DNA of 64,000 nucleotides from Nanobdellota archaeon (lineage in GTDB: Archaea; Nanobdellota; Nanobdellia; Pacearchaeales; GW2011-AR1), in contig JBBSZK010000009.1 in assembly GCA_038044745.1 (NCBI GenBank), positions 245 through 64,244 of the forward strand. The letters are read 5' to 3'. The position numbers were made by a program, and so were the translations under genes. The notes beneath the pieces were generated by a model. It saw nothing but the letters and a program-made list of their open reading frames with translations. It did not search any database and was not told the DNA's origin. Below are positions 37,570 to 53,500 of the stretch, one piece after another (position 1 is the first letter of the stretch; each line of letters opens with the position of its first letter).

Positions 37570-37775
37570 CAGATGACGACCCGATAGTATTCTTGTTTAC
37601 CATCTCCTACAATTCGCTCAATTTTTATGACATCGCCTCGTTGCGCGCCTTCCGGAACACCAGAATCAGTCGCCTTTATCTTCGGTAATTGTCCAACAGA
37701 AATACGGAACGTATCTAGAAGTTTTTTCAACTCTTCCGGTTTTAGCTTCGTGTGTTTGGGCTGTAGGATGTGCAT
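37569..37775 (-). CDS. rpoH: DNA-directed RNA polymerase subunit H
   Basis: 68 aa. HILQPKHTKLKPEELKKLLDTFRISVGQLPKI...DVIKIER is Rpb5-C-like, in the conserved position upstream of rpoB. Confidence 0.88.
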   Translation of the reverse strand: MHILQPKHTKLKPEELKKLLDTFRISVGQLPKIKATDSGVPEGAQRGDVIKIERIVGDGKQEYYRVVI

Positions 37776-37881
37776 TTGTAACGGCGAAATGACGTTGGTA
37801 AACGGGATAACAATTCTGTATAAAAGTGGCTTTTTAAATGTATCGCCCGCACCCTAATTTCAGGCAACATAGTGCTGGTCT

Positions 37882-37892
37882 CCGACGGGATT
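37882..37892. repeat. Fossil fragment of the tRNA-Lys T-arm
   Basis: ccgacgggatt is identical to 50029-50039 in the same orientation, 64 nt left of att copy A. Confidence 0.45.
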
Positions 37893-37955
37893 CCCGAAGG
37901 TTCAAAAGAACCGAGGGGGACTAAGGATTGCAATCCTTAGGATGTTCAAATCCAA

Positions 37956-37967
37956 ATGGCCCCGACG
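37956..37967. repeat. Direct repeat of the tRNA-Lys 3' end (att copy A)
   Basis: atggccccgacg is 12/13 identical to 50023-50035 in the same orientation. Confidence 0.7.
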
Positions 37968-38064
37968 ACCCTAACGCATTTTGACTAAAACTTGGCGTAT
38001 TATTAGGTACAAGTTTTATACAAGATTATGTGATCTTCAGAATTTTTAAGGATTGTCGAGATAC
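37968..38064 (+). repeat. Conserved element left arm (copy A)
   Basis: Aligns with 39296-39388 and 6142-6230 through an ordered series: cattttg, ggcgta, attaggtac (38002-38010), ttatac, and atttttaaggattgtcgaga (38042-38061). Confidence 0.65.
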
Positions 38065-38074
38065 AGTCTATCGA

Positions 38075-38398
38075 TTAGAAACCAAAAAGTCTTTCGTAAT
38101 CTTTGTGATTCATCCAATTGAGTAATGCTGCGATTATCTCAATTTGTCCTCCAGATGTAATAGAATAGAGCAATCTCCAACCAGTCGGAAGATCATAAAT
38201 CCATAAGTTATTTAGATTATATTTATCAATCAACTTTTTAGGAATTAACTCTTTTTTCACGTTTCTTCCGCAAGAGAAGTTTTCCTGAATTGCACCTACT
38301 GCGCGTATTATTCCTTTCTTTATTGGGTCGTTATCAGATAACTCATTAAAGCTTTCTTCAAGTTCTTGGTCTACAAAGATCACTTTATCAGGTTTCAT
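38075..38398 (-). CDS. RelE/ParE-like toxin (107 aa)
   Basis: C-terminal NLWIYDLPTGWRLLYSITSGGQIEIIAALLNWMNHKDYERLF fits the RelE/ParE pattern (..W.....yRl.Y.i.....i.i..i..H..Y). It overlaps the upstream partner gene by 4 nt. Confidence 0.5.
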   Translation of the reverse strand: MKPDKVIFVDQELEESFNELSDNDPIKKGIIRAVGAIQENFSCGRNVKKELIPKKLIDKYNLNNLWIYDLPTGWRLLYSITSGGQIEIIAALLNWMNHKDYERLFGF

Positions 38399-38685
38399 AG
38401 TTTAATGGCCGGTCTGTTCTTTATTTTTTCAAAGAATGCAGGATTCCAAATATAAACGAGAAATCCTTCATTATCATATGCTATCTTTCCAATGCTTTCC
38501 AGATATTCAATAATAACTTGAAACGTTTGCCACATTACCTTGCGAGGAAGATTATTGAACAGTTCTGTTTTTTTGAATTCTCCGCTATGTTTCTCAATAA
38601 ATTTCTCAGCCATTAGCACAGTCTGTAAGGTGGGAGATCGTGCAAATTCTGATTTCTTCTCGCTTGTTAGTTCCATATCAATCAT
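38395..38685 (-). CDS. Putative antitoxin / winged-helix protein (96 aa)
   Basis: Translationally coupled (ATGA overlap) to the RelE-like gene. No strong motif. Confidence 0.4.
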   Translation of the reverse strand: MIDMELTSEKKSEFARSPTLQTVLMAEKFIEKHSGEFKKTELFNNLPRKVMWQTFQVIIEYLESIGKIAYDNEGFLVYIWNPAFFEKIKNRPAIKL

Positions 38686-38776
38686 ATCAATTGATATTAT
38701 TTAAACTTTCCGGTTTTAATGATTGTCGAGAAGAGAAATCGTTAAAGTCTACGATTTAAAGCGAATATCTTTCTCT

Positions 38777-39172
38777 TTACTTAACTCTTTTACTTCTACC
38801 TTCTAAGTCCTTTCTCATCTTATCAAGATTATGTTTCGAAGGAAATACTATAAGTCCATCAACTTGGTGCTTGTTTCCATCATACTCAAAATACCCGAGA
38901 TTGTATAAACTAAACCAAGATTTTTCTACAGTAGTGAATTTCCAAGACTTAGGAATATCAGCAGGTTCATTCATAACAATAACTAAATCAATATCAGAAC
39001 CGATTTGATTTCTATAAGGTTCTTTGTAAAGACCAAATTTTCTTTCAGCAAGAGAGGCCCAAACATAGGCTTCTTTGACACTACTAGATTTAGATAGAAG
39101 TTTTTTAATAAAGTCTTCAGCTTTAACCCAGACGTCATCCTGGTCAGCATATAGGATTTTTTCTGGTTTCAT
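38777..39172 (-). CDS. Minimal nucleotidyltransferase-domain protein
   Basis: GSDIDLVIV (G-S...D-x-D NTase motif). 131 aa. No adjacent HEPN partner. Confidence 0.6.
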   Translation of the reverse strand: MKPEKILYADQDDVWVKAEDFIKKLLSKSSSVKEAYVWASLAERKFGLYKEPYRNQIGSDIDLVIVMNEPADIPKSWKFTTVEKSWFSLYNLGYFEYDGNKHQVDGLIVFPSKHNLDKMRKDLEGRSKRVK

Positions 39173-39178
39173 AAAGAT

Positions 39179-39198
39179 TCTCGATATTATCTAAACTG
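39179..39198 (-). repeat. Inverted copy of the terminal TATA-like/ATCGAGA motif (right end of islet 1); probably also the NTase promoter
   Basis: Plus strand tctcgatattatctaaactg. The reverse complement tttagataatatcgaga lies 7-27 nt upstream of the NTase ATG. Confidence 0.45.
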
Positions 39199-39282
39199 AA
39201 TAACTTAACTATAAAAGTCTTATTAAGCGACTTGTATAATCCTTGTACATACAAAAACTACGAAATTTGACAAAAATATATG

Positions 39283-39295
39283 ATGGCCCCGACGG
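39283..39295. repeat. Direct repeat of the tRNA-Lys 3' end (att copy B)
   Basis: atggccccgacgg is 13/13 identical to 50023-50035 in the same orientation. Confidence 0.8.
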
Positions 39296-39388
39296 CCCTA
39301 GTACATTTTGTCCATTTTTCGGCGTAGTGATTGGTACAAGCCTTATACAGATTCTCTAGACATAAGCGATTTATAAATATTGTCTAGA
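39296..39388 (+). repeat. Conserved element left arm (copy B), ending in the 23-nt TIR gcgatttataaatattgtctaga
   Basis: See copy A. The TIR partner lies at 49936-49958. Confidence 0.65.
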
Positions 39389-39421
39389 AGAATTGCAAAA
39401 ATCAATCTGAGGTTGTTCTAC

Positions 39422-39958
39422 TTATGCTGTTCCAGGTCGGATATAAAAATAACCTTTGCAATTTTCAGAAACTCCGGACAAATCCCTCTTAAGAATTTTT
39501 TCAGAGTCAATACCTTTTCCACCAATCCATAAAGGCGATTGATGACCTGAATTGAGAGGCAATCCATTGTAGTGGCTGTCTATTTCTAGTAATCTAGAAA
39601 GATTGCCTGGACCTTGAGCAAATCCTCGTGAACCTGCCCCATCTCTAATTTCTGCAGCAATAAGGGTAACGCAAGAGGGTTTTCCAAATTTACCTGTCGC
39701 AATGTCTACAAGGTGCTTACCATATTTAGTGCTAACCGAAACAATTCCTGAAGCGTATTTTATTCCTTCAGAAGCCGTCTTTGCATCTCCTTGATAAGCG
39801 GCTACTTCATGTAGTTGCGCATATAGTGTTGCTGAACCCTCGCGTCCTACAACAAAAACACGTCCTAATAGATCTTGAGCCACATCAACTGCAGGTCTAG
39901 CAAAAAAGTCATGACTAAGCTGTGTCTTTCGATGTGGAATGTCAAATCCTTTGGCCAT
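39422..39958 (-). CDS. DNA-3-methyladenine glycosylase (MPG/AAG family)
   Basis: FFARPAVDVAQDLLGRVFVV...EVAAYQGD...A...GPGNLSRLLEID matches the MPG family layout. Confidence 0.7.
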   Translation of the reverse strand: MAKGFDIPHRKTQLSHDFFARPAVDVAQDLLGRVFVVGREGSATLYAQLHEVAAYQGDAKTASEGIKYASGIVSVSTKYGKHLVDIATGKFGKPSCVTLIAAEIRDGAGSRGFAQGPGNLSRLLEIDSHYNGLPLNSGHQSPLWIGGKGIDSEKILKRDLSGVSENCKGYFYIRPGTA

Positions 39959-39992
39959 TATGTGTTACTCTGTAATGGTTACATAAACATAA

Positions 39993-40009
39993 GCTTTATA
40001 AACTTTATG
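39993..40009 (+). promoter_or_regulatory. TATA/BRE-like promoter cassette gctttataaactttatg
   Basis: TATA centre about 24 nt upstream of the ATG at 40024. Identical 17-mer at 16570-16586. Confidence 0.5.
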
Positions 40010-40023
40010 CTGACCCTCTTTAT

Positions 40024-41040
40024 ATGGAAAAAAGACCCGAATATAAGGGGACTTTTCAAGACCTCTGTGTAGACCAAGTAAGGCGTGGAAATAGCTATGC
40101 GTCTGGTTTTTTAAAAGATGGTAAAAGTGCTCTTGCTCTTGCATTAGAACGTGCGAAACGTATTGGTCTTCCTACTGAGGTAATACATAGAGCAGAAGAA
40201 AGAGGCATGCTTGAATCAGAAGCAGGTAAGTCCGTACTTGCTAACAGTTCTTACAGCCTTTTAATGAGACAAAAGCCCGCAGTTATTAATAGTGTGAAGA
40301 AAACCTTTTTCTTGAGCGATTCAGAAGTAAATCATCTTCTCACGGCCGCTGTGGGGGATGGTCTTCTTCTTATGGATGATGAACATTCTGAAATTAAAAT
40401 CCTCGCGTCAGACGAAGAACATACTATTATTACGACTAATGCTGATGAGGTACTCGCTACTAGAAAAGTTGAGACGGAAAGCGAAAGATTAGACAGGGTA
40501 CAAAAAGAAATTAACAAACAAATAGATAACAGAAATAAAAGAGAGAAAGTAAGAGTAATCAAAGGAGACGATTGCATCTCCTCTAAAAATCTGTCAGAAA
40601 GCGCACTAGAATACCTCAGAAAGAACAAGTATAAGGAAATCTCATTCAAAGGAATAATATCGGGAAATAAGCAGAAATATTTCATTAAGCCTAAAAAGAG
40701 TGAAAGTCCGCAACACATATTCTGCGTGTATGATATTGCATCATATCTGAAAAGCTTCACAGAAAAAGTGTTTACCTATCATGCCGTTAAAGCAGATATC
40801 GTGTTTGAAGTGAATGGAAAAGAATATGCGATTGAAGTTGAAACAGGCAAGATGATGAAACATAAAAAAGAAGAGCTAAAGAAGAAAGTAGAGAATCTTA
40901 ACAATAAATATCAAGACAGATGGTTCTTTGTTGTGACTGATAGAAATTTAAGAACAAAATATGCTAAATTAGGTACGACCTATGATAAAAGACACCTAAC
41001 AAGCGTTATTAATCGCATTGTCAGTGATTCTGCCAACTGA
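40024..41040 (+). CDS. Chimeric protein: N-terminal segment resembling the extreme C-terminus of VirB4/HerA-FtsK-type transfer ATPases (no P-loop) plus a C-terminal PD-(D/E)xK nuclease-like domain
   Basis: N-terminal part: ...FFLSDSEVNHLLTAAVGDGLLLMDDEHSEIKILASDEEHTIITTNADEV. C-terminal part: VKADIVFEVNGKEYAIEVETGK (D...E.E.K-like). No Walker A motif anywhere. Confidence 0.4.
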   Translation: MEKRPEYKGTFQDLCVDQVRRGNSYASGFLKDGKSALALALERAKRIGLPTEVIHRAEERGMLESEAGKSVLANSSYSLLMRQKPAVINSVKKTFFLSDSEVNHLLTAAVGDGLLLMDDEHSEIKILASDEEHTIITTNADEVLATRKVETESERLDRVQKEINKQIDNRNKREKVRVIKGDDCISSKNLSESALEYLRKNKYKEISFKGIISGNKQKYFIKPKKSESPQHIFCVYDIASYLKSFTEKVFTYHAVKADIVFEVNGKEYAIEVETGKMMKHKKEELKKKVENLNNKYQDRWFFVVTDRNLRTKYAKLGTTYDKRHLTSVINRIVSDSAN

Positions 41041-41131
41041 CAGCCTATTGTCAGTAGGATTTAAGGTCTTTTCAGCCAAATTTCAGCCGTTCATCGACGA
41101 ACTTATAAAAGTAGGACTGCGTATTGTCAGT
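41017..41131 (+). repeat. Three direct copies of ATTGTCAGT (iteron-like)
   Basis: Copies at 41017-41025, 41047-41055 and 41123-41131. The second forms the palindrome actgaca-gcctat-tgtcagt with upstream sequence. Related to the ATTGTCGAGA end motif. Confidence 0.5.
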
Positions 41132-41221
41132 TAACGATTTCTCTCTTTCTCTTCTTCTCTCTGCCTCTCGGACAGATGGTGGGGGCCGGTGCAGCGCTAG
41201 GAATTACATTTTTAATAAGCG

Positions 41222-41257
41222 ACACCACGTCTTTTTTTTGAAGAACTGACGTGGTGT
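41222..41257. terminator. Hairpin with T8 loop between convergent island genes
   Basis: 10-bp stem acaccacgtc / gacgtggtgt (41222-41231 and 41248-41257). The 16-nt loop begins with tttttttt. Confidence 0.35.
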
Positions 41258-41280
41258 GCTTTGGGCTACCCGAGTATTAA

Positions 41281-42831
41281 TTAAAATTTAGTCGCGTTGA
41301 TAAACGCAGAAACTTGATTTACAATTTCTGAATAAGTTATGCTCTGATTTTCCCACACATTCAAGATACGGAAAAGAGAAGGCATGTTAGTAAACGACTC
41401 TCCTGTAATGATATAGTTAAACACCCACGTTTGATTATTGAGAACGGTTGCTCTATTGAAATTGCCTAAATATTGTTCTCCCAATTGGTTAAACAAATAA
41501 ACTTGTCGATTATTGAGGATAAAATTATTAGGTAGGGAGGCATTGATACCCTGCTCTATGGCCAAATCTCCTTCACTATTGTTTGCCCCATATACAACTA
41601 CAAGTTTTGGCCTGCGGCTTACATTTGTGTCGTCTTTGCCTGCTATTCTCACTTCTTTTCCAGTTGTATAAAAGCCAACGAAACCAGTGCTAAATCTATC
41701 ACTCGTAAGTCCCTTTTCAAAGTCTCGACCTGCTTCTTCTGATAAAGGAATGTCTATAAATTCAAGCGTTTGATAACCATTCTCGCTGTAGAACGATGCA
41801 TTGCCCATATCGTTATAAAATTGACAATTGCCCTGACAGCTAGGAGTGGTATCGCTGTAACTTCCGCTCCATCCCTCCATGGGGGTAACTCCTAGATATA
41901 CGTTTTGTGAAGAAGGTGAGGCGGTTGTAAGAAATAACTCAAGATTCACAGATTGCACTGCTGAAGAATCTGATATTGAAGAAATATTCCAGTCTATATT
42001 TGCACGAGCCATACGCCCCAGATCAGAAGGAATCACTATAAGTTCTCCCGCCTGAAGATAGGTCGAAGGATTATTAGTTCTAGTGTAAGTAGAGGTCGTA
42101 GCATTGGTACGATTGATAATATAGCCATTCCATAAAATTGCACTCGAATCCAAACTTAGACTGGGATCAATAATAAGAGGATATTGTATATCGGGATATG
42201 CCAAAAATGAAGTAGGAACATGTACAGTAATGTTACTTCCAGTATTTTCATAGACAAGATCAAGACACAGACCTTTTGCATCACATATAAATGGGGGAAG
42301 AATAGTGAAGTCTGCATCTCCCTCCTTAGAAAATACCAAATTAATGCCTTCTTGTGATGAGGCCCCTAGGGGATTATTAATAACGATTTCTTCCTTGAGT
42401 AAAGTTGGCAAATAATGATATCTCACATCAACATCATTAATGACATTAGAATAAAATATACTATTTTCTCGCATTGAAGGAGTAAATGTTGGGGTCGCGC
42501 CATTAATCTCTATGAGTTTCATAGAAATACTTTGTCCATGACGGAAAGCAGTGATAGTTCCATCAGCACGAGCTTCCGCACGATAGTAATAATCTCTTGT
42601 GCAGTATTTAGTAATTTCAGATTCTGAGCACTGGGAGAAACTTTCATCAATCTCCCCCCAACGTCCATTGTTACCTTTCCAATACTTATCGTAAGAGTAG
42701 ATTTGAGCAGTACACGAACTACCCTCGCAGACAGTATCCCAATTGGAGCCGTAATTTGTTTCTTGAGCATATACGAAGGTCGAACTAATAAATATCAGAA
42801 AAATGGTCAACATAAAGTAAATCTTACTCAT
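41281..42831 (-). CDS. Secreted protein (516 aa), possibly with a DNRLRE-like beta-sandwich
   Basis: Signal peptide MSKIYFMLTIFLIFISSTFVYAQE. Asn/Ser/Thr-rich and beta-rich. The segment ANIDWNISSISDSSAVQSVNLELFLT is reminiscent of DNRLRE domains. Confidence 0.7.
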   Translation of the reverse strand: MSKIYFMLTIFLIFISSTFVYAQETNYGSNWDTVCEGSSCTAQIYSYDKYWKGNNGRWGEIDESFSQCSESEITKYCTRDYYYRAEARADGTITAFRHGQSISMKLIEINGATPTFTPSMRENSIFYSNVINDVDVRYHYLPTLLKEEIVINNPLGASSQEGINLVFSKEGDADFTILPPFICDAKGLCLDLVYENTGSNITVHVPTSFLAYPDIQYPLIIDPSLSLDSSAILWNGYIINRTNATTSTYTRTNNPSTYLQAGELIVIPSDLGRMARANIDWNISSISDSSAVQSVNLELFLTTASPSSQNVYLGVTPMEGWSGSYSDTTPSCQGNCQFYNDMGNASFYSENGYQTLEFIDIPLSEEAGRDFEKGLTSDRFSTGFVGFYTTGKEVRIAGKDDTNVSRRPKLVVVYGANNSEGDLAIEQGINASLPNNFILNNRQVYLFNQLGEQYLGNFNRATVLNNQTWVFNYIITGESFTNMPSLFRILNVWENQSITYSEIVNQVSAFINATKF

Positions 42832-43160
42832 AGTTTCTGTTTACCTCCATATTTCAACCAAGCAATTGAACAGGATAACAGATAAGCCACGAATAAGGGC
42901 ATTAATACAATGAAAAGATATGTTAATATCAACTCATTGAATGTCGTACAGCTACAATGACAGCCCACTTTTATGATAAGATACTTACTGTAGTCCGTAC
43001 AGCCATCAAATCCGCCTCTTTCACAAAAACATCTCATGCTTCCAAATACAGTCCAGGATAATATTAGCCAGAATACAAATAATATTACGAGAGTAACTAT
43101 TTTAAATCGAGTTGGTCGCCAAAACCCATTCGTCTTTTGTTGCAGCACTATCTTTTTCAT
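42828..43160 (-). CDS. Cys-rich small membrane protein (110 aa)
   Basis: Two TM helices flank CFCERGGFDGCTDYSKYLIIKVGCHCSC. The ORF has a 4-nt overlap with the downstream gene. Confidence 0.6.
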   Translation of the reverse strand: MKKIVLQQKTNGFWRPTRFKIVTLVILFVFWLILSWTVFGSMRCFCERGGFDGCTDYSKYLIIKVGCHCSCTTFNELILTYLFIVLMPLFVAYLLSCSIAWLKYGGKQKL

Positions 43161-43161
43161 C

Positions 43162-46100
43162 CTAAATTGTAACTCCTATTCTATCCATTTCTATGTAGTT
43201 ACTACTGGTTGCTAAAAATGTAGCATTATAACTTCCAGAAGTGGAATAATTATGATAAATATATACAAAAATAGCTTCCGCAGGCTGTAAATGAAATAGC
43301 AGAGTAGAATCCTTGATATCCTCTCCAGAATCAAATTGCCAGGTTATATTTGCTATATTGAAGTTGGCAGTATTGTTCAATTCTACTAAAAAGACACGTT
43401 CAGTACTATTCGTATAAACTTCCTTGAAATTAACAATTTGTAAGTCATTGTCTACCCCGAAGGTGTTGGTCATTGCACTAGAATTCGTGTTAGCACCATC
43501 ACTTGCTAATACCTTGATTTTATAAGTAGTGCCATCTGGAAGATCGCTTGAATTTATAGAGTAAGAAGTCTGATTGAGATCAAGAGCCACCGTACTATAA
43601 GTAGTCCCGTTATCGGGACTGACTAAGATGGCATAACTTAATGTATCTCCATCTGAGTCAGAAGCAGTCCAATTTATGGTTAGTTCCTGATTACTAAATA
43701 TTTGACTACCTGGATAAGAAGTTAAAGTGAGAGCAGGCACATGTGCGGATACATTTCGCGTATCTTTAGTCACACCGTCTTTCTTTAATATGAATTTGGA
43801 AAAGCTCTGATTAAAGGGGATAGTAAATGCAAAGGCAGTTTCATTTATTTGAGTAGAATTGCTTCCAAGTAAAAAGTAAGTAAAAGAAACATCGAAACTA
43901 AAGTTGTAAACTAAACCGTTAGTACTGTTATAGGCTTCAATAGTATAATTTCCAGTTTGATATTCAGTTTGATTAATTGCTAAACCCGCACCCACCGTGT
44001 AGAAGTTTTCAAATCTTCCCGTATCAGAAGATCCATTGATAATCCCCGATACAACAATACGGGATGTTGTAGATATAGGGGTTGCATGTTTAAATTCCTG
44101 AAGTAGATGCTCATAAGACTCGTCAGAAATCCAGTTTCTCTTTGTAACCAAAAGATTCCCCATAAAGTTAGATAAGGGATCTGTATAAAGGGGATCGACT
44201 GTAAGAGGGCTCAAGGTGGAGGCAGGGCAACCATCTGGAGCGCATCCCGCATCCAAGATCTCATCATTGTTGGCATCACCATTTGGACAAAGATCCGTAA
44301 AGCCAAGGAAAGAATTTTGAGACGACCATTCATCACTATCGTATTCATCACAAAATCCATAAGTGTGACCGAGTTCATGGGCGGCAACATGATCTAGAAC
44401 ATTATAGTCTTCGAGGTCAGCTTCGACTAGCACTCCATTGTTAAACATACTACTAACTCCATGTGTACCTTGGTCTCCAAAGATGTTATCTGCAAACCAA
44501 TGAAAAGGAACTATCCCGACAGCTCTTTCAGGGAGTTCGCCAGCTATCAACGTGCTTCTATAAACTCTATGCATCAATAAGGGGAAACCAACCCCATAAG
44601 GGGCTCTTTCGGCTATATTGCTTTGGATACCTGTTCGATTAGTCTTTGCGATTAAACCAGTATCGCTTAAAGGATAGGTTTTCTTTATAAAATCAATAGA
44701 ATCACTAGCCACATTATCAAAGTTCCCAGCATTATCAACAGAAACAAAAGTCACGCTTAGGTTCCTAGTAGCGCTTACATTAACTACCTTTTTAGCGACT
44801 CCACCGAAGACCGCAACCTTCACTTCCTTATTATTGCCGGCAACATCGGGTTTAAAGTAGAAATCAATAGTTTTCATAGTCTCTGTTGCGTTAAATATAG
44901 CGGTAGTTGAATTCTTTAAAACATTATCAAAATACAAACTAACCAAAACTTGTGAATTGGAAGAAGCGTTTATCTCAGTTCTGACTAAAGTTTTTCGGTC
45001 CTTAACTAATTCTGTGTTTTCGATGACCTGGGCTAATCTCATGCTATTTATATTTCCAGACCCGTTGTTTTCATACCATTCTACAAAATCTGTAAAACCT
45101 CGCGCACCCACTACATCTATAGCCTCATCCCCATTTAAGTCTACACTCTGTAAAAAGGAAACTCCGTTGCCAGTGGAAGTTATAGTTTTCCTAGTCCAAT
45201 TCAATGACGAACCACTGTTCTCATACCACGATATTTTAAAATCATTATCTGATCCGCTTACAACATCAACATCTCCATCGCCGTCAAAATCTGCTGCAGA
45301 TACAGCAACTGCTCCGTCAGCGCTTGTGTTAATTATTCTACCGGTCCAACCTGCAGGAATTGAACCATTGTTCTCATACCAAGCAACCTTATCATCGTTT
45401 CGAGAAGCACTTAATACATCCATATCTCCATCACTATCCAAGTCAGTTGCATATACGGAACGAGCGTCATCCGCTGTGGTGTTTATAGTTCTTGTTGTCC
45501 AAGTCAGGGGGCTTCCACCATTATTTTGATACCATTCTATTTTATCGTTATCTCTTGATGCACTAATAACATCAGTATCATTGTCCTTGTCCATATCTAT
45601 AGCATATAACGATCGTATCTCTCCAACTGATGAAACCAATACATTCTCCGTCCAGGTTGGGGGAGACCCACCATTATTTTTAATAAAATAAATTTCGCCC
45701 AAGCCTAAACTTTCACCAACTATAATGTCCATTCGTCCATCTTTGTCTAAGTCCGCAACAATTACAGTTCTTGGAGAATAAGGAGGCCCGAGATTGCTCA
45801 CAGTTCGGTTTGTCCATCCTGGCGGACTCGATCCGTTGTTCTGGTACCAAATGACTTGGCCATTATCAACACCGGTATGAGATACACTTACAACATCGAT
45901 ATAAGTATCATTATTTATATCTGCTGCGAAAACTGCTTTAGGCGAAAGAAAGGAAGTGGCTATTGATCTCTCAATCCAAGTTGAGCCATTGTTTTCGTAC
46001 CAAGCTATCTTCTTATCATTCTCTGATGAACTTACTACATCAAGATCCCCGTCTTTGTCTATGTCTGCAGTATACAATCCAGTTGCCCAGTCTGCAGAAG

Positions 46101-46827
46101 AACCGATTACATGTGTGGTCCATCCCAATTCAGGGTCAATTGCTAATTCCTGCAATTGAGCCAAATCCACGTTTAGTTCTAAATCAATATAATTGCGATT
46201 TTCTTTAGAATAAACTGATACCTTATAATCAAAGTTTAAAATATCTTTAAAATCATAATAATTGTTCCCAAAATAAATAACATTCCCATCTAAATAAGTC
46301 TCTTCATCAGTTGAAGAGGCATCTCTTTTGTTCTCAAAGGCTCTAAAATATGTCGGAACAGTCGACAAAGTATAATTTGTCCCATTCCAAATAACTGTGG
46401 AAGAATCAATTTCGTATCTTACATTAAGTTTTACAGTTCTTGATTCAGCTAGTAAGTTTTTAATAAAATAAGTTTGTTTCACAGGTTTTTCTTTAGTGTT
46501 AAAGAGACTTGTATCGTGCTGGCGATAATCACTTTTAACTTCTAGATTGTTGAATTTAAATGTGCTACCATGTTCACCATTCGTTTTCTGGATGTTCTCT
46601 GTGTTAAAATCCTTAGAAGAAGAGATATCAAAAACTATATTTTTATATCCCTTTAAATATGAAAATTTAGTTAAAGCGTTTGTATCGTCGAGATTTTTTA
46701 TTTCTTTATTCTTAACTATTCCTACTTGGTCCTTAGAAATTACAAAATTAGCTTGGAACAAAACAAGAAAAAGCACACCGAGGGCAATAAATCCTATAGA
46801 AAATAGATATGCTCCTCTTCTACCCAT
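43162..46827 (-). CDS. Giant surface protein: TM anchor, 7 FG-GAP/VCBS repeats (beta-propeller), HExxH zinc-metalloprotease domain, Ig/FN3-like modules
   Basis: Trimmed to MGRRGAYLFSIGFIALGVLFLVLF. Seven DxDxDGxxD-type repeats (ADIDKDGDLDVVSSS ... VDLNGDEAIDVVGA), each followed by WYENNGS-like strands. HVAAHELGHTYGFCDEY. C-terminal LTINWTASDSDGDTLSY module. Confidence 0.8.
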   Translation of the reverse strand: MGRRGAYLFSIGFIALGVLFLVLFQANFVISKDQVGIVKNKEIKNLDDTNALTKFSYLKGYKNIVFDISSSKDFNTENIQKTNGEHGSTFKFNNLEVKSDYRQHDTSLFNTKEKPVKQTYFIKNLLAESRTVKLNVRYEIDSSTVIWNGTNYTLSTVPTYFRAFENKRDASSTDEETYLDGNVIYFGNNYYDFKDILNFDYKVSVYSKENRNYIDLELNVDLAQLQELAIDPELGWTTHVIGSSADWATGLYTADIDKDGDLDVVSSSENDKKIAWYENNGSTWIERSIATSFLSPKAVFAADINNDTYIDVVSVSHTGVDNGQVIWYQNNGSSPPGWTNRTVSNLGPPYSPRTVIVADLDKDGRMDIIVGESLGLGEIYFIKNNGGSPPTWTENVLVSSVGEIRSLYAIDMDKDNDTDVISASRDNDKIEWYQNNGGSPLTWTTRTINTTADDARSVYATDLDSDGDMDVLSASRNDDKVAWYENNGSIPAGWTGRIINTSADGAVAVSAADFDGDGDVDVVSGSDNDFKISWYENSGSSLNWTRKTITSTGNGVSFLQSVDLNGDEAIDVVGARGFTDFVEWYENNGSGNINSMRLAQVIENTELVKDRKTLVRTEINASSNSQVLVSLYFDNVLKNSTTAIFNATETMKTIDFYFKPDVAGNNKEVKVAVFGGVAKKVVNVSATRNLSVTFVSVDNAGNFDNVASDSIDFIKKTYPLSDTGLIAKTNRTGIQSNIAERAPYGVGFPLLMHRVYRSTLIAGELPERAVGIVPFHWFADNIFGDQGTHGVSSMFNNGVLVEADLEDYNVLDHVAAHELGHTYGFCDEYDSDEWSSQNSFLGFTDLCPNGDANNDEILDAGCAPDGCPASTLSPLTVDPLYTDPLSNFMGNLLVTKRNWISDESYEHLLQEFKHATPISTTSRIVVSGIINGSSDTGRFENFYTVGAGLAINQTEYQTGNYTIEAYNSTNGLVYNFSFDVSFTYFLLGSNSTQINETAFAFTIPFNQSFSKFILKKDGVTKDTRNVSAHVPALTLTSYPGSQIFSNQELTINWTASDSDGDTLSYAILVSPDNGTTYSTVALDLNQTSYSINSSDLPDGTTYKIKVLASDGANTNSSAMTNTFGVDNDLQIVNFKEVYTNSTERVFLVELNNTANFNIANITWQFDSGEDIKDSTLLFHLQPAEAIFVYIYHNYSTSGSYNATFLATSSNYIEMDRIGVTI

Positions 46828-46849
46828 CTCCGACCGATGAGAGTCTACT

Positions 46850-48595
46850 TTAAATAAGTTTCTGTAGCTGGATTCTGGAAAGAGGAAGATTGTCAACATT
46901 GTTATTATCTCCATTGAACAGATAGGTCTCATCGCAGAATCCGTCTTTCTGCTTGTCTAAACAAGTCTCGCTAAAGCCTGTTCCATCAGGCTTCGCCCAA
47001 TAATTCCCGCCGACAAAGGGGCCACCCACAATATTTGAACTCTTCTGCTTAGTAGTATTTCCATAATTAGACCCAGTTACACCTGCATTATTCCAATTAT
47101 TGAAATAATTATTGTATAGTTTATTCCCAAAGGTAGTAGGGCCATCCATCCGCAACCCTTGAGCGTTAGAATAAATATAATTTTGAGTAAACGTGTTTAA
47201 AGAAGATTCCGATAAATAAAAGCCGTAAGTGTCAATCGATCTCACAGTATTGTTTATGAGAGTATTGTTTCGAGAGTTAGTAAACCTAAACCCGTAGGTT
47301 GCAAAGATGTCTCCGCCATCAATAAGATTATTGGAGAATTTGTTGCTATTTGAATTTTCAGCGACTATGGAAATGTAAATCGATTCAAACTTATTGTCTT
47401 TTATAATATTATTTCCTTGTTTTAAATGCATTCCCCATCCAGGGATATTAAAGAAAGTATTGTTTATAATAAGCCCGCTGGAATGAGTTTTCATGCCCAC
47501 ATCGTAATCTGAAATTATACAATTTTTTACTGTTACTCCTGACTGTAAAACAGTTATCCCCGCAGCGTCATGAGGAGAATAAATATGCGCATAATTACAG
47601 TCCAAGGTAATTCCTGCCTTATTTATCTTAATTCCTTGTGGTAGTCGATAAGAACCTAAGCACAATTTGGTGTCATTCATTATCACAAACCCATCGGTAG
47701 GAGATACGCAGTGCCAACCATCAAATTCAATAAAGGGAAGATGATCTTGATTTTGCTCGTCTATTATGAGCGGGTTATCACAGATGCCATCTCTATCGGA
47801 GTCTCCACAAAACTCATCCCTATTATCGTAATTACTCCAATAATTACCTCCTATAGGAAGAGAGAAATCCCATACATTTCCACCGTTATTGACGACTTGA
47901 ACTTCGTTTTCGACAAAATTATTGTTGTAAACCTCGTTACTTGGAGAAACAATAGATATTCCCCTTTTATTATAGGTTATATCGTTATCCTTGACCTCAT
48001 TGAAACTTGATCCAGAACCTAAAGATACTCCATTTTCATTAGAAAAGACTACATTGCTAATAAAACTATTATTAGTAGACGAATCGACGACTATCCCACT
48101 AGCCTTATTGTCCGAAATATTATTATTTAAAAGGGCAATAGTCTGGGAGTTAGATATTAAAAAAGCGTTAGAGTTATGATATAATGCATTATTAGAGAAA
48201 GTATTATTGCTAGAGCCAGCAATAGATAGGGCATAGTCGTTAGTCGAAAGAACGTTATTAGTTACGAGATTATGTGCAGAGTTATTAAAATAAATTCCTT
48301 GAGAGAAGTTCTCAATCTTACCATATTTTACTGAAAAAGAATCGAATCCATTATTTAGAACTCCCGTACCTTCGCCATTGCCTACAATTTTATGGCCGAA
48401 TAGATTTAAGTAAACATTATTTGCTTGGATTGTCAGGCAAGTTCCACTTGCTGCGATATCGTTCTGTAAAACATAAATTTCATTCTCAACGTCTAAGGTC
48501 TGACAACCGTATAAATTGCGAGCGCTTGTAAAATTTAATATAAATACAAGAAGGAATAAAATAGAAACTAATCTTATCAACCTCATTCGTAGCAC
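46850..48595 (-). CDS. Right-handed parallel beta-helix (PbH1/NosD-like) repeat protein, secreted or anchored
   Basis: N-terminal hydrophobic segment, then many N-x-I/V-x-x-N repeats (NNVLSTNDYALSIAGSSNNTFSNNALYHNSNAF...). Confidence 0.75.
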   Translation of the reverse strand: MLRMRLIRLVSILFLLVFILNFTSARNLYGCQTLDVENEIYVLQNDIAASGTCLTIQANNVYLNLFGHKIVGNGEGTGVLNNGFDSFSVKYGKIENFSQGIYFNNSAHNLVTNNVLSTNDYALSIAGSSNNTFSNNALYHNSNAFLISNSQTIALLNNNISDNKASGIVVDSSTNNSFISNVVFSNENGVSLGSGSSFNEVKDNDITYNKRGISIVSPSNEVYNNNFVENEVQVVNNGGNVWDFSLPIGGNYWSNYDNRDEFCGDSDRDGICDNPLIIDEQNQDHLPFIEFDGWHCVSPTDGFVIMNDTKLCLGSYRLPQGIKINKAGITLDCNYAHIYSPHDAAGITVLQSGVTVKNCIISDYDVGMKTHSSGLIINNTFFNIPGWGMHLKQGNNIIKDNKFESIYISIVAENSNSNKFSNNLIDGGDIFATYGFRFTNSRNNTLINNTVRSIDTYGFYLSESSLNTFTQNYIYSNAQGLRMDGPTTFGNKLYNNYFNNWNNAGVTGSNYGNTTKQKSSNIVGGPFVGGNYWAKPDGTGFSETCLDKQKDGFCDETYLFNGDNNNVDNLPLSRIQLQKLI

Positions 48596-48660
48596 AATAA
48601 TAAAGAGTATTTAGATTTTTTCTTTTATAGTCTTCTTTTATAGATCTTCTGCGGTTGATT

Positions 48661-49797
48661 TTAACACCCTTGATGTTGTCCTCTATCCGAAGTTATCAAC
48701 TTGCCTTCAGAATTAAAATGAGACAAACCATTATGCTCAAAAACATGGTCAATACAACACATATCGGGACGATAATCTAGAATCATAATCTCTCCTGGTT
48801 TTGTATTAACTCTGTCCTTAAGGTCTTGCGGTAGATGACGTTCCATAGCAGCCTGATGCCATTTTAGAACTATTTGTTTAGGATCTGCATGATTAGGATA
48901 AAATCCACACACTTCTAGTTTTCCAAAATCGTGTGACGCAAGTAAGACGCCTTTTTTCTCTAAACCGCTTAGATGTCTTTTTGACTCCTCAACATTAGCA
49001 GAGGCTTCATGCAAGGGTATTCCATATTGTTCAACTTCTCGTACGGGCATGAAAACGGTAAGATAATAAGAAATTATTTTATTATCTAAGAACCTCTGTT
49101 GTAGATCAACCAACGTAGGAACACTATCATTAACTCCTCTAATGATTGCAGGCTGACCCCTTATTTGTACACCTGCTTGTTGCAGTTTTCGTGTAGTCTC
49201 GCCTGAATGTTCATTCATCTCCCCCGGATGGTTAATCTGTGCAATAACGCTTACTTGCTTTCCTTTTCGTTGATTTGTTTCGTAAAAGAAATCAAGCAAT
49301 TGTTCATCTCGTAAGTGTTCTGGATTGTACGCCAGACTTTTAGTTGCGAATCTAACCAATCTTACGCCATCATGGTCTATTAATCTTTTGATGACTTCGG
49401 CAAGCTTCTGCGTTTTAATAAGTGCAGCAGGATCGCCCCCAGTGAATAGAATATTATTTACTTCAGGATGATCGGCTAGATACTCTAAAGCTCTATCAAC
49501 TCTTTGCTCAATAGGAACTCGTTCTTTATCTTCATGTCTAATTTCATTGACCTTATAACAAAACTGACAGTTAGAAACACATCGATCATCTAAATGGAAT
49601 AGTAATGTCGGTTTGTATTTGTGTTGAATAAAATGATCCCCATTATGTCTATAAGAAGCATTTCCATAAGGGTCAAACCTTCCTTTAAAGGGTTTAGAGG
49701 CAATAGGAGGAACAACAACGTTAGTCATTTGAGTTCTATAAGGCTCAGATTGAGAGGCAATAAGATCAGTATAGAATCGAGTCACCTTGAAAGGCAT
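48661..49797 (-). CDS. KamA-family radical SAM enzyme (lysine 2,3-aminomutase-like)
   Basis: HKYKPTLLFHLDDRCVSNCQFCYK (CxxxCxxC in the KamA context), followed by FTGGDP. Confidence 0.75.
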   Translation of the reverse strand: MPFKVTRFYTDLIASQSEPYRTQMTNVVVPPIASKPFKGRFDPYGNASYRHNGDHFIQHKYKPTLLFHLDDRCVSNCQFCYKVNEIRHEDKERVPIEQRVDRALEYLADHPEVNNILFTGGDPAALIKTQKLAEVIKRLIDHDGVRLVRFATKSLAYNPEHLRDEQLLDFFYETNQRKGKQVSVIAQINHPGEMNEHSGETTRKLQQAGVQIRGQPAIIRGVNDSVPTLVDLQQRFLDNKIISYYLTVFMPVREVEQYGIPLHEASANVEESKRHLSGLEKKGVLLASHDFGKLEVCGFYPNHADPKQIVLKWHQAAMERHLPQDLKDRVNTKPGEIMILDYRPDMCCIDHVFEHNGLSHFNSEGKLITSDRGQHQGC

Positions 49798-49935
49798 GTG
49801 AGATTCGCCTAAAGCTTGGGATCGTGCAGACCCTTTTTACAATACTACAATATTTTAAATCTTAAATCGACTGTCTGTATGGAAAACGGACTCAGATCCA
49901 TCATCCTTTAAATAAAAAATTACCGATATACTCCA

Positions 49936-49958
49936 TCTCGACAATACTTATAAATCGC
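49936..49958 (-). repeat. Right terminal inverted repeat of the 10.7 kb island
   Basis: The reverse complement gcgatttataagtattgtcgaga matches 39366-39388 at 21 of 23 positions. Confidence 0.6.
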
Positions 49959-50023
49959 CCCAATCTTAATGTGCTACTTATCTGCTTACAAAAAACCCGC
50001 TCTGTGATGTGCCAAAATGGTTA

Positions 50024-50155
50024 TGGCCCCGACGGGATTTGAACCCGCGACACCTGGATTACCTCAACAAAGATTCTTCATTGTCTTTTTGAGGGACAAC
50101 GGAAATCGCTCTGTTGTAAAAGTCCAGTACTCTAACCGGGCTGAGCTACGGAGCC
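50024..50155 (-). tRNA. tRNA-Lys (anticodon UUU) with 57-nt intron at the canonical 37/38 position
   Basis: Reverse complement GGCTCCG TA GCTC..GAGT A CTGGA CTTTTA [57-nt intron] A TCCAG GTGTC GCGGG TTCAAAT CCCGT CGGGGCC A. The intron ends can pair (CAACA / TGTTG), consistent with a bulge-helix-bulge. The 3' end overlaps the att core. Confidence 0.85.
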
Positions 50156-50592: not shown

Positions 50593-53500
50593 TTATTCGC
50601 CGCATCCAGAACGCGTCGTCTGGTTGCACGAGTTACACGTAATCGCGCAGTTACCAATGCGTTTAGCAGGTCCACCACACAGCGGGCAGACAATGCCTTC
50701 ATTGAGTCCGAAATCTTTAATCGTCTTTTGTTCTTCAATCGTTTCAATCTCAGGCATAGTTTTTATTTCGAACTCAACTTTTCCCGCACCCGGGCCAAAA
50801 TTATTGAGCATAAATTGAGCGACATAGTCAACAATTGAACTCGCATTCCGAATGCGAACGGCTTTCTCATCAAGTTCTCCACCGTTAACATTTTTCACAA
50901 ACCCGGCGGGCTCAAACTTTGAGTATCGGAATTTATTGAACAAGATATCGACAGGAATCCCATATTGCAAGTTGAGTGAAACGGAAGTAGCCCACGAGTC
51001 CATAAGTCCCCTAATCGTCGATCCTTGCTTGGACATTGTAACAAAAATCTCTCCAGGCGAACCGTCATCGTACAATCCAACCGTGATGTACCCCTCATGC
51101 CCTGTAATATCAAATTTATGAGTAACTGACTTGCGCGTCTGAGGCAGCCTCCTACGTTCACTTATCGATTCTATGGTCGCTTCTTTCTTTACGCGTTCTC
51201 CTTCGGTCTTTTGTGTGTTAAGGGGCTGACTGCGCTTGCTGTTTTCACGGTAAATCGCTACTGCTTTCAAGCCCTGCTCCCATGCAAATACATACGTTTC
51301 AGCAATATCATCAACCGTCGTATGCTCGGGCATGTTAACTGTCTTGCTAATCGCTCCTGAGACAAACGGTTGCGTAACTCCCATCATCTTAATGTGCCCA
51401 CGATGATGAATATATCGTTTTCCCTTCGCGGCCTTGAACGCGCAATCAAATATCGCTAAGTGCTCATCACGAAGTTCAGCAGCGCCTTCAATCGTGTCAT
51501 TAGCATCAATGTAATTAACAATAGCCTGAATCGCTTCAGGACTGTACCCAAGCGTTTTGAGTGCAAGGGGCACCGAGCGATTGACTATTTTGAGCATACC
51601 TCCTCCCGCAAGTACCTTGTATTTCACAAGCGCAATATCAGGTTCAACACCGGTTGTATCGCAGTCCATCATGAACGCGATAGTTCCCGTCGGAGCAAGT
51701 ACTGTCATTTGCGAATTACGGTATCCATAAATCTCACCCAAGCGTACGGCGTCATCCCAGCAGTCCCACGCCTCGTTAACGAGGTATCGTAAATCGGAAG
51801 GAATCTTATTGACTTCAATCTTCTTAACCGCATCGCGATGCATTCGCATAACTTCAAGCATAGGTTCGCGATTGCGTGCGAATCCGGGGAAGGGCCCCAC
51901 CGCGTGCGCGACCTCTGCGGACATGCGATACGCCTCACCGCACATAATCGCGGTAACGGCCGCGGCAACTGCGCGACCTTCATCGGAATCGTATGGCAAA
52001 CCCAAACTCATCAGGAGTGCGCCAAGGTTTGCATATCCCAATCCGAGGGGTCGATAATCGTGTGAGTTGCGGGCAATCTTAGCAGTAGGATAACTCGAGC
52101 CATCAACAAAAAGCTCCATCGCGAGTGAAAACGTACGAACAACGCGCTTAAATCGCTCGACATCAAACTTGCCCTCTTCCGTTCTAAATCGCATGAGGTT
52201 TATGGATGCAAGATTACACGCACTATCGTCAAGGAACATGTATTCGCTGCAATTGTGAATAGTAATACCATTAGCAACAAAACTATGCGTTATCGGTTCA
52301 GTCAAATCGTATACGGATTGTACTCCTTCATACACGAGGGAAGCCACACGTTCGAAGGGAACGTCCCTATAGCTTTCAACGTGTACATTCAATCTTTCTA
52401 ATGCTTTTTGCTTAGGAGACTCAGACATAAATCCGATAAGCTTTTGAAAGACGTGTCGGCTCGAACGAGAAATACGCAACGAATACATCTCTCGTATGGT
52501 ATATTCTTTAAGTCCTCCTTTTCCATCAGGTAACAATGAAGTCGATTTACCCGCTCGACGATTTTTGTATAATTTACTTCTGATACCAAATCCAAGCAGC
52601 ATAAGTTGCACATCTTTTAGCAGTTGTAAACTAGTTGAATCGAGAGCAACATATTGAGATTTGTCACCATAATTGGCCACGGTTCCATCGGCACTAAACA
52701 ATCCTTGCAGGACATACTTTTGAGCTCCCAGAGGGAGGGCAAAAATAGCATCAGAGAGACATTTTTGATGTGAAAGATTAGAAATGTTTACCAACCGACT
52801 GATTTCTTGTATCAAAGTAGTGTTCGTTACGACATATTTTCCTGACGTTTGTGTAAGTTGTACCGTAGCAGGAGATAATTTATGGGTTTGTCGTTCATAG
52901 TTCTCTGCGACATAGGCCGCAAACTTTTGTAGAATAGATGCTTCCTGCTCTTTATGCATGGTGATCTGTATTCCTCGGTTGGCATTAACAGTTCCGCCAC
53001 ATCCATCCCCTAAATAAACCCCTATCAATTGATACAACGTTTGATCTTTTTCATCAATGGTTTCAAGAGGTGCCACAGCAGAATTAGGTATGAGGAGCAA
53101 ATCATCTTTTGTCAACTCACACGCGGAAACGAATCCTCTATTTACGGTAAACACTTTATGATCTCCCGTTAATTTTAGCTCGTAACCCGATTCGGTGGAG
53201 AGTGTATAAACAGGTTTTTCTCCAGTTTTAAAAGAGCCCTTTATAGCCGACGCTTGAATGAATCCCGTGTTGGTTAAAATAGTCGTTGGTTTTTCAAGAA
53301 GAGAATCGATACGGCGCCATGTTCCATTCTCACTGAGCACACGAGTATCTCCAGTTACACAAGGATTGCTTGCGTTAATGCGCCCACTGTTCTTGCATGT
53401 ATGCCAGGTATTAACTGTCGTGTCAAACTGCACGCCCGGATCACCGCAAATCCAGGTTCCCTCAGCTATTTTATGCATAATCTCTTTTGCCTTGAACGTT

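Follow-up and report, generated by a model that had tools for sequence, protein, structure and literature searches.

The stretch of DNA considered here, hereafter the window, comprises 64,000 nucleotides (nt) of a Nanobdellota archaeon (GenBank assembly GCA_038044745.1, contig JBBSZK010000009.1, positions 245 to 64,244 of the forward strand), and contains a 10.7-kb low-GC island in which five genes follow one another on the minus strand. In the direction of transcription these encode a 378-aa KamA-family radical S-adenosylmethionine (SAM) aminomutase-like protein, which we refer to as rSAM (48661–49797), a 581-aa beta-helix protein (46850–48595), a large protein with an FG-GAP propeller and a zincin module, which we refer to as the cargo protein (43162–46827), a small 110-aa protein with two transmembrane (TM) segments, p110 (42828–43160), and a 516-aa protein with an N-terminal signal-like segment, p516 (41281–42831). 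The genes are separated by 65 nt (rSAM/beta-helix), 22 nt (beta-helix/FG-GAP) and 1 nt (FG-GAP/p110), and the last two overlap by 4 nt; the open reading frame (ORF) coordinates and direct reading of the sequence bear out the five ORFs, spacings and motifs given in a preliminary description of the region, which had treated the five genes as one operon. Core archaeal genes flank the island (RNA polymerase B and A subunits, EF-2, EF-1alpha, SMC, class II ribonucleotide reductase and thioredoxin), and the GC content of the island genes is 0.35–0.415 versus 0.45–0.46 for the flanking housekeeping genes. We consider it probable that the region is a mosaic, in which an orphaned rSAM gene on an eroded integrative element adjoins a separate four-gene surface cassette, and that it is not one system.

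A single system, in which the KamA-like enzyme would supply a beta-amino acid for, or modify, the adhesin/protease proteins, finds some support in the common strand, short gaps and shared low-GC island of the five genes, and in the intact and constrained body of rSAM. Neighbourhood surveys largely refute it. None of 36 rSAM loci, surveyed over 8 kb around rSAM, contains a homologue of the beta-helix, FG-GAP, p110 or p516 genes, and none of 48 p516 loci contains rSAM, so that the five-gene set is not conserved elsewhere and rSAM is the member that drops out. In addition, rSAM has other conserved partners (a tRNA_edit gene or nonribosomal peptide synthetase (NRPS) genes, see below), and TATA-like boxes lie between it and the beta-helix gene. 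A five-gene system is accordingly very improbable, and the tie between a KamA-type aminomutase and the cassette that had first been suggested does not hold. The other four genes of the proposed aminomutase and adhesin/protease system do recur elsewhere, fused or coupled; the fallback offered in the preliminary description, that the aminomutase is an unrelated passenger, is the correct reading by the neighbourhood survey and by two contigs of the closest rSAM relative.

Both of these contigs (L014/L015, encoding the relative P0002) carry an ATPase gene that is convergent with rSAM, 146 nt from its stop codon, with no cassette between the two. The product of that gene, of at least 659 aa, matches P-loop_TraG (1e-25) and DUF87 (5e-16), and its C-terminal ~280 aa are 60% identical to the product of orf338 (40024–41040, plus strand), the gene that faces the cassette in the window. 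The P-loop half is missing from orf338, which is a 5'-truncated relic of a TraG/VirB4/HerA-type ATPase gene. Because of the convergent pair in L014/L015 and the homology of orf338, we take rSAM and a TraG/VirB4-type ATPase gene to be the predicted ancestral tail-to-tail neighbours on a backbone resembling that of a conjugative element. In the window the four cassette genes (7.6 kb) occupy the space between the 3' ends of rSAM and orf338, and an AG-rich tract that directly follows the rSAM stop in L014 is found past the hairpin that follows p516. A fragment like the C terminus of orf338 (61% identity; L045 11717–11947) lies, in convergent orientation, directly after another p516/cargo pair from the same aquifer; TraG-like ATPase genes and p516 cassettes therefore meet at a like junction more than once.

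Candidate transcription signals coincide with these boundaries. Two TATAAAAG motifs resembling TATA boxes (48622–48642, minus strand) were read directly in the rSAM/beta-helix gap, ~27–50 nt upstream of the beta-helix start, and form a candidate promoter for a four-gene unit; there is no TATA-like box in the beta-helix/FG-GAP gap. Following the p516 stop, a GC-rich hairpin whose loop includes eight consecutive A (GCACACCACGTC ... GACGTGGTGTC; 41221–41259, minus strand), likewise a direct reading, likely marks the end of the transcription unit. The cassette is thus probably a separate four-gene transcription unit with its own TATA promoter and terminator hairpin. As regards the five-gene operon first described, the tight packing of the last four genes stands, but the TATAAAAG boxes may set rSAM apart from the beta-helix gene.

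We turn to the rSAM protein itself. Its cluster motif CVSNCQFC (aa 73–80) is invariant across the family alignment, and it matches Pfam Radical_SAM (8e-09). The best NCBIfam model is TIGR00238, at 139.5 bits against a curated cutoff of 199.2; scores against the AblA/KamA equivalog TIGR03820 (92.3 bits, cutoff 525.4) and the EpmB equivalog TIGR03821 (107.6 bits, cutoff 369.3) fall far below cutoff, as do those against the Glu and Arg aminomutase equivalogs. The assignment to the KamA family that was made at the outset thus survives in the cluster motif and the best model, but not as membership by the family cutoff, and by NCBIfam scores the protein belongs to neither the AblA nor the EpmB equivalog. 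Like the known members of the family (KamA/AblA, EpmB and the Glu/Arg 2,3-aminomutases), rSAM has a CxxxCxxC motif and TIGR00238 as its best model; unlike them, it lies under every curated cutoff and is found outside an AblB, EpmA or EF-P context, no ablB-type acetyltransferase gene having been detected in the island with Pfam or NCBIfam and no EpmA or EF-P-like neighbour having been seen across the 36 rSAM loci. The partner specific to its clade is instead a YbaK-like tRNA_edit protein. The family as collected here comprises 126 matches of 40–85% identity from DPANN (Diapherotrites, Parvarchaeota, Aenigmarchaeota, Nanoarchaeota and Nanohaloarchaeota) archaea, candidate phyla radiation (CPR) bacteria, Chloroflexota, Bacillota and others. 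We consider rSAM a divergent relative of the KamA family, outside its curated membership, that by sequence would represent a distinct aminomutase clade.

The rSAM protein can be aligned with Clostridium subterminale lysine 2,3-aminomutase (LAM; 2A5H) over ~220 residues (E 3e-20). Position Asp293 of LAM, presumably the ligand of the lysine epsilon-amine, aligns with an invariant Met250 in rSAM, and Arg134 of LAM, the role of which we likewise assume from the LAM structure, aligns with an invariant Lys. Because these two positions hold Met and Lys, lysine is an unlikely substrate of rSAM. The alignment with 2A5H stops at rSAM residue 279, before the site of the LAM lysine that binds pyridoxal phosphate (PLP), Lys337; the invariant K293 in the rSAM motif SHDFGK may be the PLP-lysine equivalent.

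Among the relatives of rSAM, genomic context is consistent. In every archaeal or CPR relative that is at least 57% identical, a gene of ~165 aa with the PF04073 tRNA_edit domain adjoins or overlaps rSAM or is fused to it. The gene lies upstream of rSAM in all such adjacent cases but one (L036), and its product is a divergent YbaK/EbsC-like protein; an ArsR-type 389-aa gene is often found divergently upstream of the pair. Such pairs are present at L001 7499–9257, L003 5616–7377, L004 7510–9245, L007 3159–4936 and L036 7866–9607, and a tRNA_edit-rSAM fusion at L041 6867–8672. Coupling or fusion of the two was found in DPANN archaea, in one CPR bacterium and in one metagenome-assembled genome (MAG) of the Verrucomicrobiales, and in L004 the pair lies among translation genes (PheRS, RtcB, RNase P and aIF genes). 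A search of the literature for a link between an aminomutase and YbaK returned no description of one. A tblastn search of all 64 kb of the window found no tRNA_edit gene (best E 0.28).

A second context is provided by NRPS genes. In Brevibacillus, the genes on either side of rSAM are NRPS genes that encode condensation, adenylation and thiolation (C-A-T) modules (Pfam scan of L018); in Paenibacillus (L023) rSAM has comparably giant ORFs on both sides, and in a Lachnospiraceae MAG (L039) it stands beside an adenylation-thiolation (A-T) didomain. The Brevibacillus and Paenibacillus loci considered were L018–L024 and L028; clade members at these loci and at L039 are 62–63% identical. A literature search on the product of the Brevibacillus aminomutase gave nothing useful. 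The position of the NRPS-embedded members implies that they would supply a beta-amino acid building block for some peptide and suggests that the whole clade serves to provide a beta-amino acid. Most likely, the window protein continues to produce a beta-amino acid, one different from beta-lysine.

Whether the window copy still functions at all is a question of what has been lost around it. Its homologues have ~37 extra N-terminal residues, the decayed remnant of which lies at 49798–49830 (minus strand), directly downstream of the proximal of two in-frame stops, the second of which is further upstream: the frame ahead of the start reads RFKI*NIVVL*KGSARSQALGESH|MPFKVT, and the N terminus of the relative P0004 matches 49830–49732 of the window (tblastn, E 7e-13). 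The ATG of rSAM is only 226 nt from the neighbouring tRNA gene. One explanation is that rSAM is a dead relic, a recently inactivated pseudogene left after loss of the tRNA_edit partner, the regulator and the N-terminal extension; the two stops and the missing partner speak for it, as do the clear truncation of the backbone neighbour orf338 and the lack of a remaining integrase in the element. Selection tells against it, in that the ratio of nonsynonymous to synonymous substitution rates (dN/dS) is 0.036–0.042 in comparisons with 85%- and 81%-identical relatives, and private changes affect 5 of 185 otherwise invariant columns, a level equal to that of intact relatives. Moreover, the window protein starts at the invariant Met of the family and keeps all invariant family residues, natural members with short N termini exist (394–397 aa), many bacterial members are found without tRNA_edit, and a TTTAAAATA resembling a TATA box precedes the ATG by ~55 nt. 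We regard the relic explanation as doubtful. The low dN/dS, the few private changes and the short natural members lead us to take rSAM as probably a functional orphan, predicted to be under purifying selection after loss of its partner and N-terminal extension.

The boundaries of the element that carries rSAM are set by a tRNA gene. The gene for tRNA-Lys(UUU) (50024–50155, minus strand; 132 nt; Rfam tRNA 53.8 bits) has the anticodon loop CUUUUA, with a 58-nt intron inserted at the canonical position, after position 37, and was missed by an ARAGORN run on the window; its identity as tRNA-Lys(UUU) follows from the orthologue of a related strain, which lacks the intron and reads CTTTTAA in the loop (L091 890–1005). 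The 3' end of this gene is the probable integration site. Its 3' 12-mer, ATGGCCCCGACG on the plus strand, occurs in three exact copies on one strand of the window, at 37956, 39283 and 50023, when chance would give ~0.004 matches per strand for each extra copy. The copy at 50023–50034 is the tRNA 3' acceptor end and forms the right boundary of the element; a second copy, together with ~55 nt of element-end sequence (39283–39349), forms the left boundary; and a third, with related element-end sequence (37956–38022), forms the outer boundary of a second, 1.3-kb islet. The 67-nt sequences at 39283–39349 and 37956–38022 were also recovered by repeat search as a family (D1) with 75% identity. The attachment (att) copies thus delimit a 10.7-kb element (39283–50034) and a tandem 1.3-kb islet.

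Consistent with an integration site, contig L090 from the same aquifer population terminates at exactly the last base of the att core (50023–50034 in the window). Two related-strain contigs, L089 and L091, also terminate within the tRNA-Lys gene, beside the thioredoxin gene. Contig ends at or in the tRNA fit, and suggest, strains that differ in what follows tRNA-Lys. An island-free (empty-site) allele was not recovered, the related contigs ending at or near the tRNA, and no integrase was found in the element by Pfam, NCBIfam or PHROGs scans. Tandem islet, low GC, direct repeats at a tRNA 3' end, the relic of a TraG/VirB4-type ATPase gene and a population assembly break at the att core are all shared with tRNA-integrated islands and integrative and conjugative elements; the window element differs from these in having no remaining integrase and in an att core of just 12–13 nt. 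We conclude that the region is probably the cargo of an integrated, degraded element at the 3' end of tRNA-Lys, in keeping with the earlier view of it as island cargo, and the element looks immobilised and eroded. A phage origin was considered and rejected, as viral contigs are without relatives of p516 or rSAM and PHROGs gave no match for island proteins. Also rejected was a functional tie of a 'lysine aminomutase-like' gene to the neighbouring tRNA-Lys, the tRNA being explained as the att site; no other rSAM locus scanned has an adjacent tRNA gene, and one has merely a distant tRNA-Ser.

The first gene of the cassette encodes the 581-aa beta-helix protein, a double NosD/PbH1-type right-handed beta-helix with strong Pfam matches (NosD 8e-57, Beta_helix 5e-30), its NosD/PbH1 type being that proposed at the outset. 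It has an N-terminal hydrophobic segment and is predicted to be secreted or anchored. Its likeness to NosD extends to PF05048 and PF13229 domain matches and a weak similarity to NosD 7O0Y; it differs in that it is no orthologue (TIGR04247 97.5 versus 300), and the window contains no nos genes (nosZ, nosF or nosY). Double beta-helix surface proteins are common among archaeal envelope proteins.

The cargo protein (1221 aa from the second ATG, which leaves the 22-nt gap and is also the start in the public annotation, or 1256 aa from the first) consists of an N-terminal anchor, a seven-bladed FG-GAP propeller, a zincin module, immunoglobulin (Ig)/fn3 domains and a conserved C-terminal domain. The anchor, the blades and the HELGH motif that had been noted in it are all present: the hydrophobic anchor spans aa 4–32, HELGH lies at aa 817, and the propeller (45028–46068, minus strand; aa ~254–600) matches Pfam FG-GAP_3 (3.3e-45, in 6 stretches) and FG-GAP (1.9e-09), seven D-x-D-x-D-G-D blades being read directly and 6 matched by a regular expression. 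From sequence alone, these seven repeats with DxDxDG loops of the Ca-binding type resemble an integrin-alpha-like propeller. There is also a match to Pfam fn3.

The zincin metalloprotease-like module (43948–44760, minus strand; aa ~690–960) contains AHELGHTYGFCDEYD at aa 815–829, Cys pairs and NFMG. Among 12 homologues the H, E, H, E, D and M columns are invariant and HELGHTYGFCDEY is invariant or nearly so; in these homologues AHExxHxYxxCDE does not vary, Cys pairs are conserved and an NxMG lies downstream. Weak matches to the M6 domain TIGR03296 were obtained for 9 of the 12 (19–22 bits, cutoff 110.8), and a profile of the 12 sequences, searched against PDB, gave sub-significant matches to snapalysin and ADAM17, with snapalysin the best enzyme match (E 0.06). 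A word-indexed homologue search of the zincin region returned 4 proteins only, an AlphaFold2 model of the region from a 5-sequence alignment (pLDDT 40) was unusable for the fold, and the C-terminal half of the cargo protein gave nothing meaningful against PDB by sequence. In AHELGHTYGFCDEYD, which fits HExxHxxGxxD(x)Y, and in the conserved downstream Met, the module resembles the M6 (immune inhibitor A) and M7 (snapalysin) zincins; it differs from them in scoring far under their cutoffs, in a conserved Cys-rich insert (CPNGD...C...GC) and in its placement, with a head (propeller, beta-helix or laminin-G) on one side and Ig domains on the other.

The end of the cargo protein is formed by an Ig/PKD-like domain (43165–43542, minus strand; aa ~1096–1221). 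A local hidden Markov model (HMM) of the last ~125 residues matched 36 ORFs, in 35 of which the domain lies at the extreme C terminus, and it is common to otherwise unrelated giant proteins (with S8 protease, Laminin_G or beta-helix domains), including proteins encoded upstream of p516 homologues. The gene that follows such ORFs, mostly with a 4-nt overlap, encodes a small TM protein or a p516-type protein, and the window has both in series.

In the window the small protein is p110, in which two hydrophobic segments, FWRPT before TM1, a Cys-rich loop and 7 Cys in all bear out the 110-aa two-TM Cys-rich protein first described. It is not called in the public annotations of the same genome; positional homologues elsewhere support its being a real gene, in so far as sequence comparison can tell, and its position, topology and motif are repeated in other loci. 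The small TM proteins encoded after ORFs with the C-terminal domain have 80–141 aa and one to three TM segments, and several have an F[FW]RPT-like motif before TM1. The Cys-rich loop was rejected as the conserved feature of p110, as the loop varies and it is the TM topology and FFRPT motif that recur. At one locus (L055 5817–15657) we observed a tandem array of at least 5 ORFs ending in the cargo C-terminal domain, some of only 177–183 aa (an fn3-like domain plus the C-terminal domain); a small membrane-protein gene comes after 4 of the 5, in one case a gene of a different, single-TM type, and the fifth ORF reaches the contig end. The array resembles a cassette store for surface-protein variation.

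Another reading would take the cargo and small TM proteins as effector/immunity-like pairs, in which secreted zincins act as weapons against hosts or competitors and the small membrane protein protects the producer; it would account for the way in which large secreted proteins are strictly paired with small membrane-protein genes that overlap their own. The array at L055, with its short 'orphan' C-terminal ORFs that each have their own small TM gene, and the mobile or variable genomic regions in which the genes lie, could be read in the same way. In polymorphic toxins, the C-terminal tip is variable and the N terminus conserved; the cargo protein is the reverse, its C-terminal domain being conserved and Ig/PKD-like, its catalytic zincin module is internal and conserved, and Pfam and NCBIfam recognise no toxin domain. 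An effector/immunity role is thus distinctly unlikely.

The last protein of the cassette, p516, combines its N-terminal signal-like segment, which had been noted before, with a beta-sandwich body resembling a carbohydrate-binding module (CBM; DNRLRE-like) and a C-terminal module. No Pfam, NCBIfam or PHROG model matched p516, the cargo C-terminal domain or the FFRPT small TM protein, and a p516 profile search recovered 132 representative clusters at E<=1e-30, a number that rises to 769 at E<=1e-10. The AlphaFold2 model of p516 (pLDDT 76) is all-beta and confident for aa 23–415, and Foldseek matched it with probability 1.0 to a chondroitin-sulfate CBM (8WAB), an alginate CBM (7VBO) and the BMP9 prodomain (TGF-beta/BMP prodomains); this CBM-like fold is in agreement with a weak DNRLRE HMM match at aa 247–325. 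The match to these CBM, DNRLRE and TGF-beta prodomain folds covers one domain only, however (TMq 0.2–0.25, identity 8–12%), and p516 differs from them in an N-terminal beta-rich domain and a C-terminal 100-aa module without a confident match. This last, separate module of ~100 aa (41284–41598, minus strand) has low AlphaFold confidence, and the module-only matches listed, 22/22, all stop no more than 3 residues short of the protein end. Proteins of 120–1011 aa that otherwise differ (P0225–P0283) carry the module (…NVWENQS.SY.EIV.QV..FIN.T..) strictly at the C terminus. It may be a sorting or anchoring domain.

The recurrence of the cassette genes is seen in several forms. At L049/L050, p516 is followed by a full-length FG-GAP/zincin homologue (46% over aa 1–1221) and then by a p110 homologue, and a second full-length cargo homologue, with an FG-GAP head, is encoded at L062 (35% identity). 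At L054–L058, the protein encoded after p516 is 44–46% identical, over its C-terminal 620 aa, to the zincin-Ig part of the window protein; in L055, L057 and L058, the three of these that were scanned, it has a NosD/Beta_helix domain as its N-terminal half, and at L061 the head on the zincin-Ig chassis is Laminin_G_3. The fusions in L055, L057 and L058 therefore link the separate beta-helix gene of the window to the zincin protein, and the fusions indicate a zincin-Ig chassis with exchangeable binding heads. We conclude that the beta-helix, cargo, p110 and p516 genes are, on this comparative evidence, a recurrent predicted cell-surface module of groundwater DPANN archaea.

Two of these loci bear on whether the cassette is a type IV pilus (T4P) accessory, with p516 and the cargo protein as pilus-associated adhesins or enzymes that depend on a T4P machine whose genes lie elsewhere. 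The p516, FG-GAP/zincin and p110 genes at L049/L050 are set between Pilin_N pilin genes and T2SSE/T2SSF genes, and the p516 locus at L011/L043 is flanked by T2SSE/T2SSF. Beside the pilin, ATPase and platform genes, archaeal T4P loci commonly hold large signal-peptide adhesin-like proteins, and also small membrane proteins together with a secreted protein of ~500 aa (PMC4858521; Makarova, Koonin & Albers 2016); exactly this setting is seen at two p516 loci. Most p516 loci, and the window, are without nearby T4P genes: such genes lie within 10 kb at just 2 of ~14–16 distinct full-length p516 loci (L011/L043 and L049/L050), in addition to one lone pilin-like ORF, and no pilin, T2SSE or T2SSF gene is present in the window island. 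Furthermore, p516 and the cargo protein have ordinary signal or anchor N termini, not class III pilin signals. A role as a T4P accessory is therefore unlikely.

Taken together, these results lead us to favour the mosaic of an element backbone and a surface cassette, for which the following course of events is proposed. The backbone would have carried a YbaK-like tRNA_edit gene and a KamA-family aminomutase gene, tail-to-tail with a TraG/VirB4-like ATPase gene; in the window genome, the tRNA_edit gene and the aminomutase N-terminal extension would have been lost and the ATPase gene cut to its C-terminal third, the aminomutase gene retaining its own promoter, independent of the downstream genes. 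A 7.6-kb module (beta-helix, cargo, two-TM protein and p516, in this order) would have been inserted between the 3' ends of the two backbone genes. Each of the three large secreted proteins has a single N-terminal hydrophobic segment and p110 has two TM segments, and by these sequence signals all four products would be exported or membrane-inserted. The cargo protein would be displayed via its N-terminal anchor and via its C-terminal Ig-like domain, docking on the co-translated two-TM protein, and would bear a swappable N-terminal head, for which relatives have a beta-helix or laminin-G domain in place of the FG-GAP propeller of the window protein. Binding surfaces would come from the propeller and from the beta-helix protein, and p516 would contribute a lectin-like (CBM-type) glycan-binding subunit. 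With the zincin cutting proteins in the envelope of a partner cell, the set would bind that envelope and locally cut or remodel it. The likely role of the cassette, we infer, is thus the binding and remodelling of a host surface. Rapidly evolving surface proteins and T4P have been implicated in the contact between Nanoarchaeota and their hosts (PMC6142677), and a role of the cassette in host contact fits both this report and the description of archaeal T4P loci (PMC4858521).

Several points weigh against parts of this account. As to insertion, no target-site duplication and no terminal or inverted repeats were found around the cassette, which could instead have been deleted in the L014/L015 lineage; the DNA alignment of the junction with L014 is too diverged for exact breakpoints. 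The TATA and terminator assignments are readings of the sequence, and read-through from the rSAM promoter into the cassette is possible. The match of the p110 homologue in L049/L050 is weak (tblastn 8e-5, 25% identity), and the Cys-rich loop of p110 is not conserved. The assignment of the zincin module as a protease is motif-based, with profile matches under significance and a structure model of pLDDT 40, and the docking of the cargo C-terminal domain on the two-TM protein is put forward as a proposal.

The surroundings of the element contain further features. The 1.3-kb islet (37968–39282, GC 0.325) contains two overlapping genes, for products of 107 aa and 96 aa, and a nucleotidyltransferase-like ORF of 131 aa; homologues of the 96/107-aa pair (41–49% identity) lie just downstream of a p516 locus (L013 12906–13496), and the pair may be a mobile toxin-antitoxin-like pair. 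An Rfam scan of 37570–38080, where an odd RNA had been suspected beside the third att copy, found nothing. Between the second att copy and orf338 lies a homologue of methylpurine-DNA glycosylase (39422–39958; Pfam 1e-14), which scores below NCBIfam cutoffs and has a GC content of 0.415, intermediate between island and host. On the other side of the tRNA gene, the class II ribonucleotide reductase (50593–54582; 1329 aa) contains an intein with a LAGLIDADG endonuclease, and a related strain encodes a 959-aa class II ribonucleotide reductase without an intein (L089 3989–6868). The GC content drops to 0.29–0.335 at 62001–64000, where a 343-aa ORF has an Mrr_cat restriction-endonuclease domain (62021–63052); this is possibly a further acquired or defence region.

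The recognition of the aminomutase as a bystander removes a misleading "new system" and leaves two subjects of interest, a cassette that is recurrent but undescribed and an uncharacterised rSAM clade. In ultra-small archaea and CPR bacteria, the coupling of a YbaK-like domain to a KamA-like aminomutase hints at a link between a beta-amino acid and tRNA; for DPANN archaea and CPR bacteria it constitutes a separate, testable lead. The cassette has a grammar that can be searched for across metagenomes and that could be tested by proteomics and by structure prediction of complexes. Tentatively, and with more doubt than confidence, we suggest that this gene syntax, in which a large enzyme or adhesin with an Ig-like C-terminal domain would be followed by an overlapping two-TM 'FFRPT' protein and/or a p516-family protein, might reflect an undescribed DPANN surface-display or sorting system that uses the C-terminal domains as address tags for a small membrane partner. 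The prevailing view of DPANN archaea is that they live attached to host cells, and to our knowledge the molecules that mediate this attachment are almost unknown. Here the cassette is part of an integrated element that varies between strains, as would fit a lateral exchange of genes for host interaction, and, if the display system is real, its swappable heads (propeller, beta-helix, laminin-G and S8 protease) would diversify host targeting.

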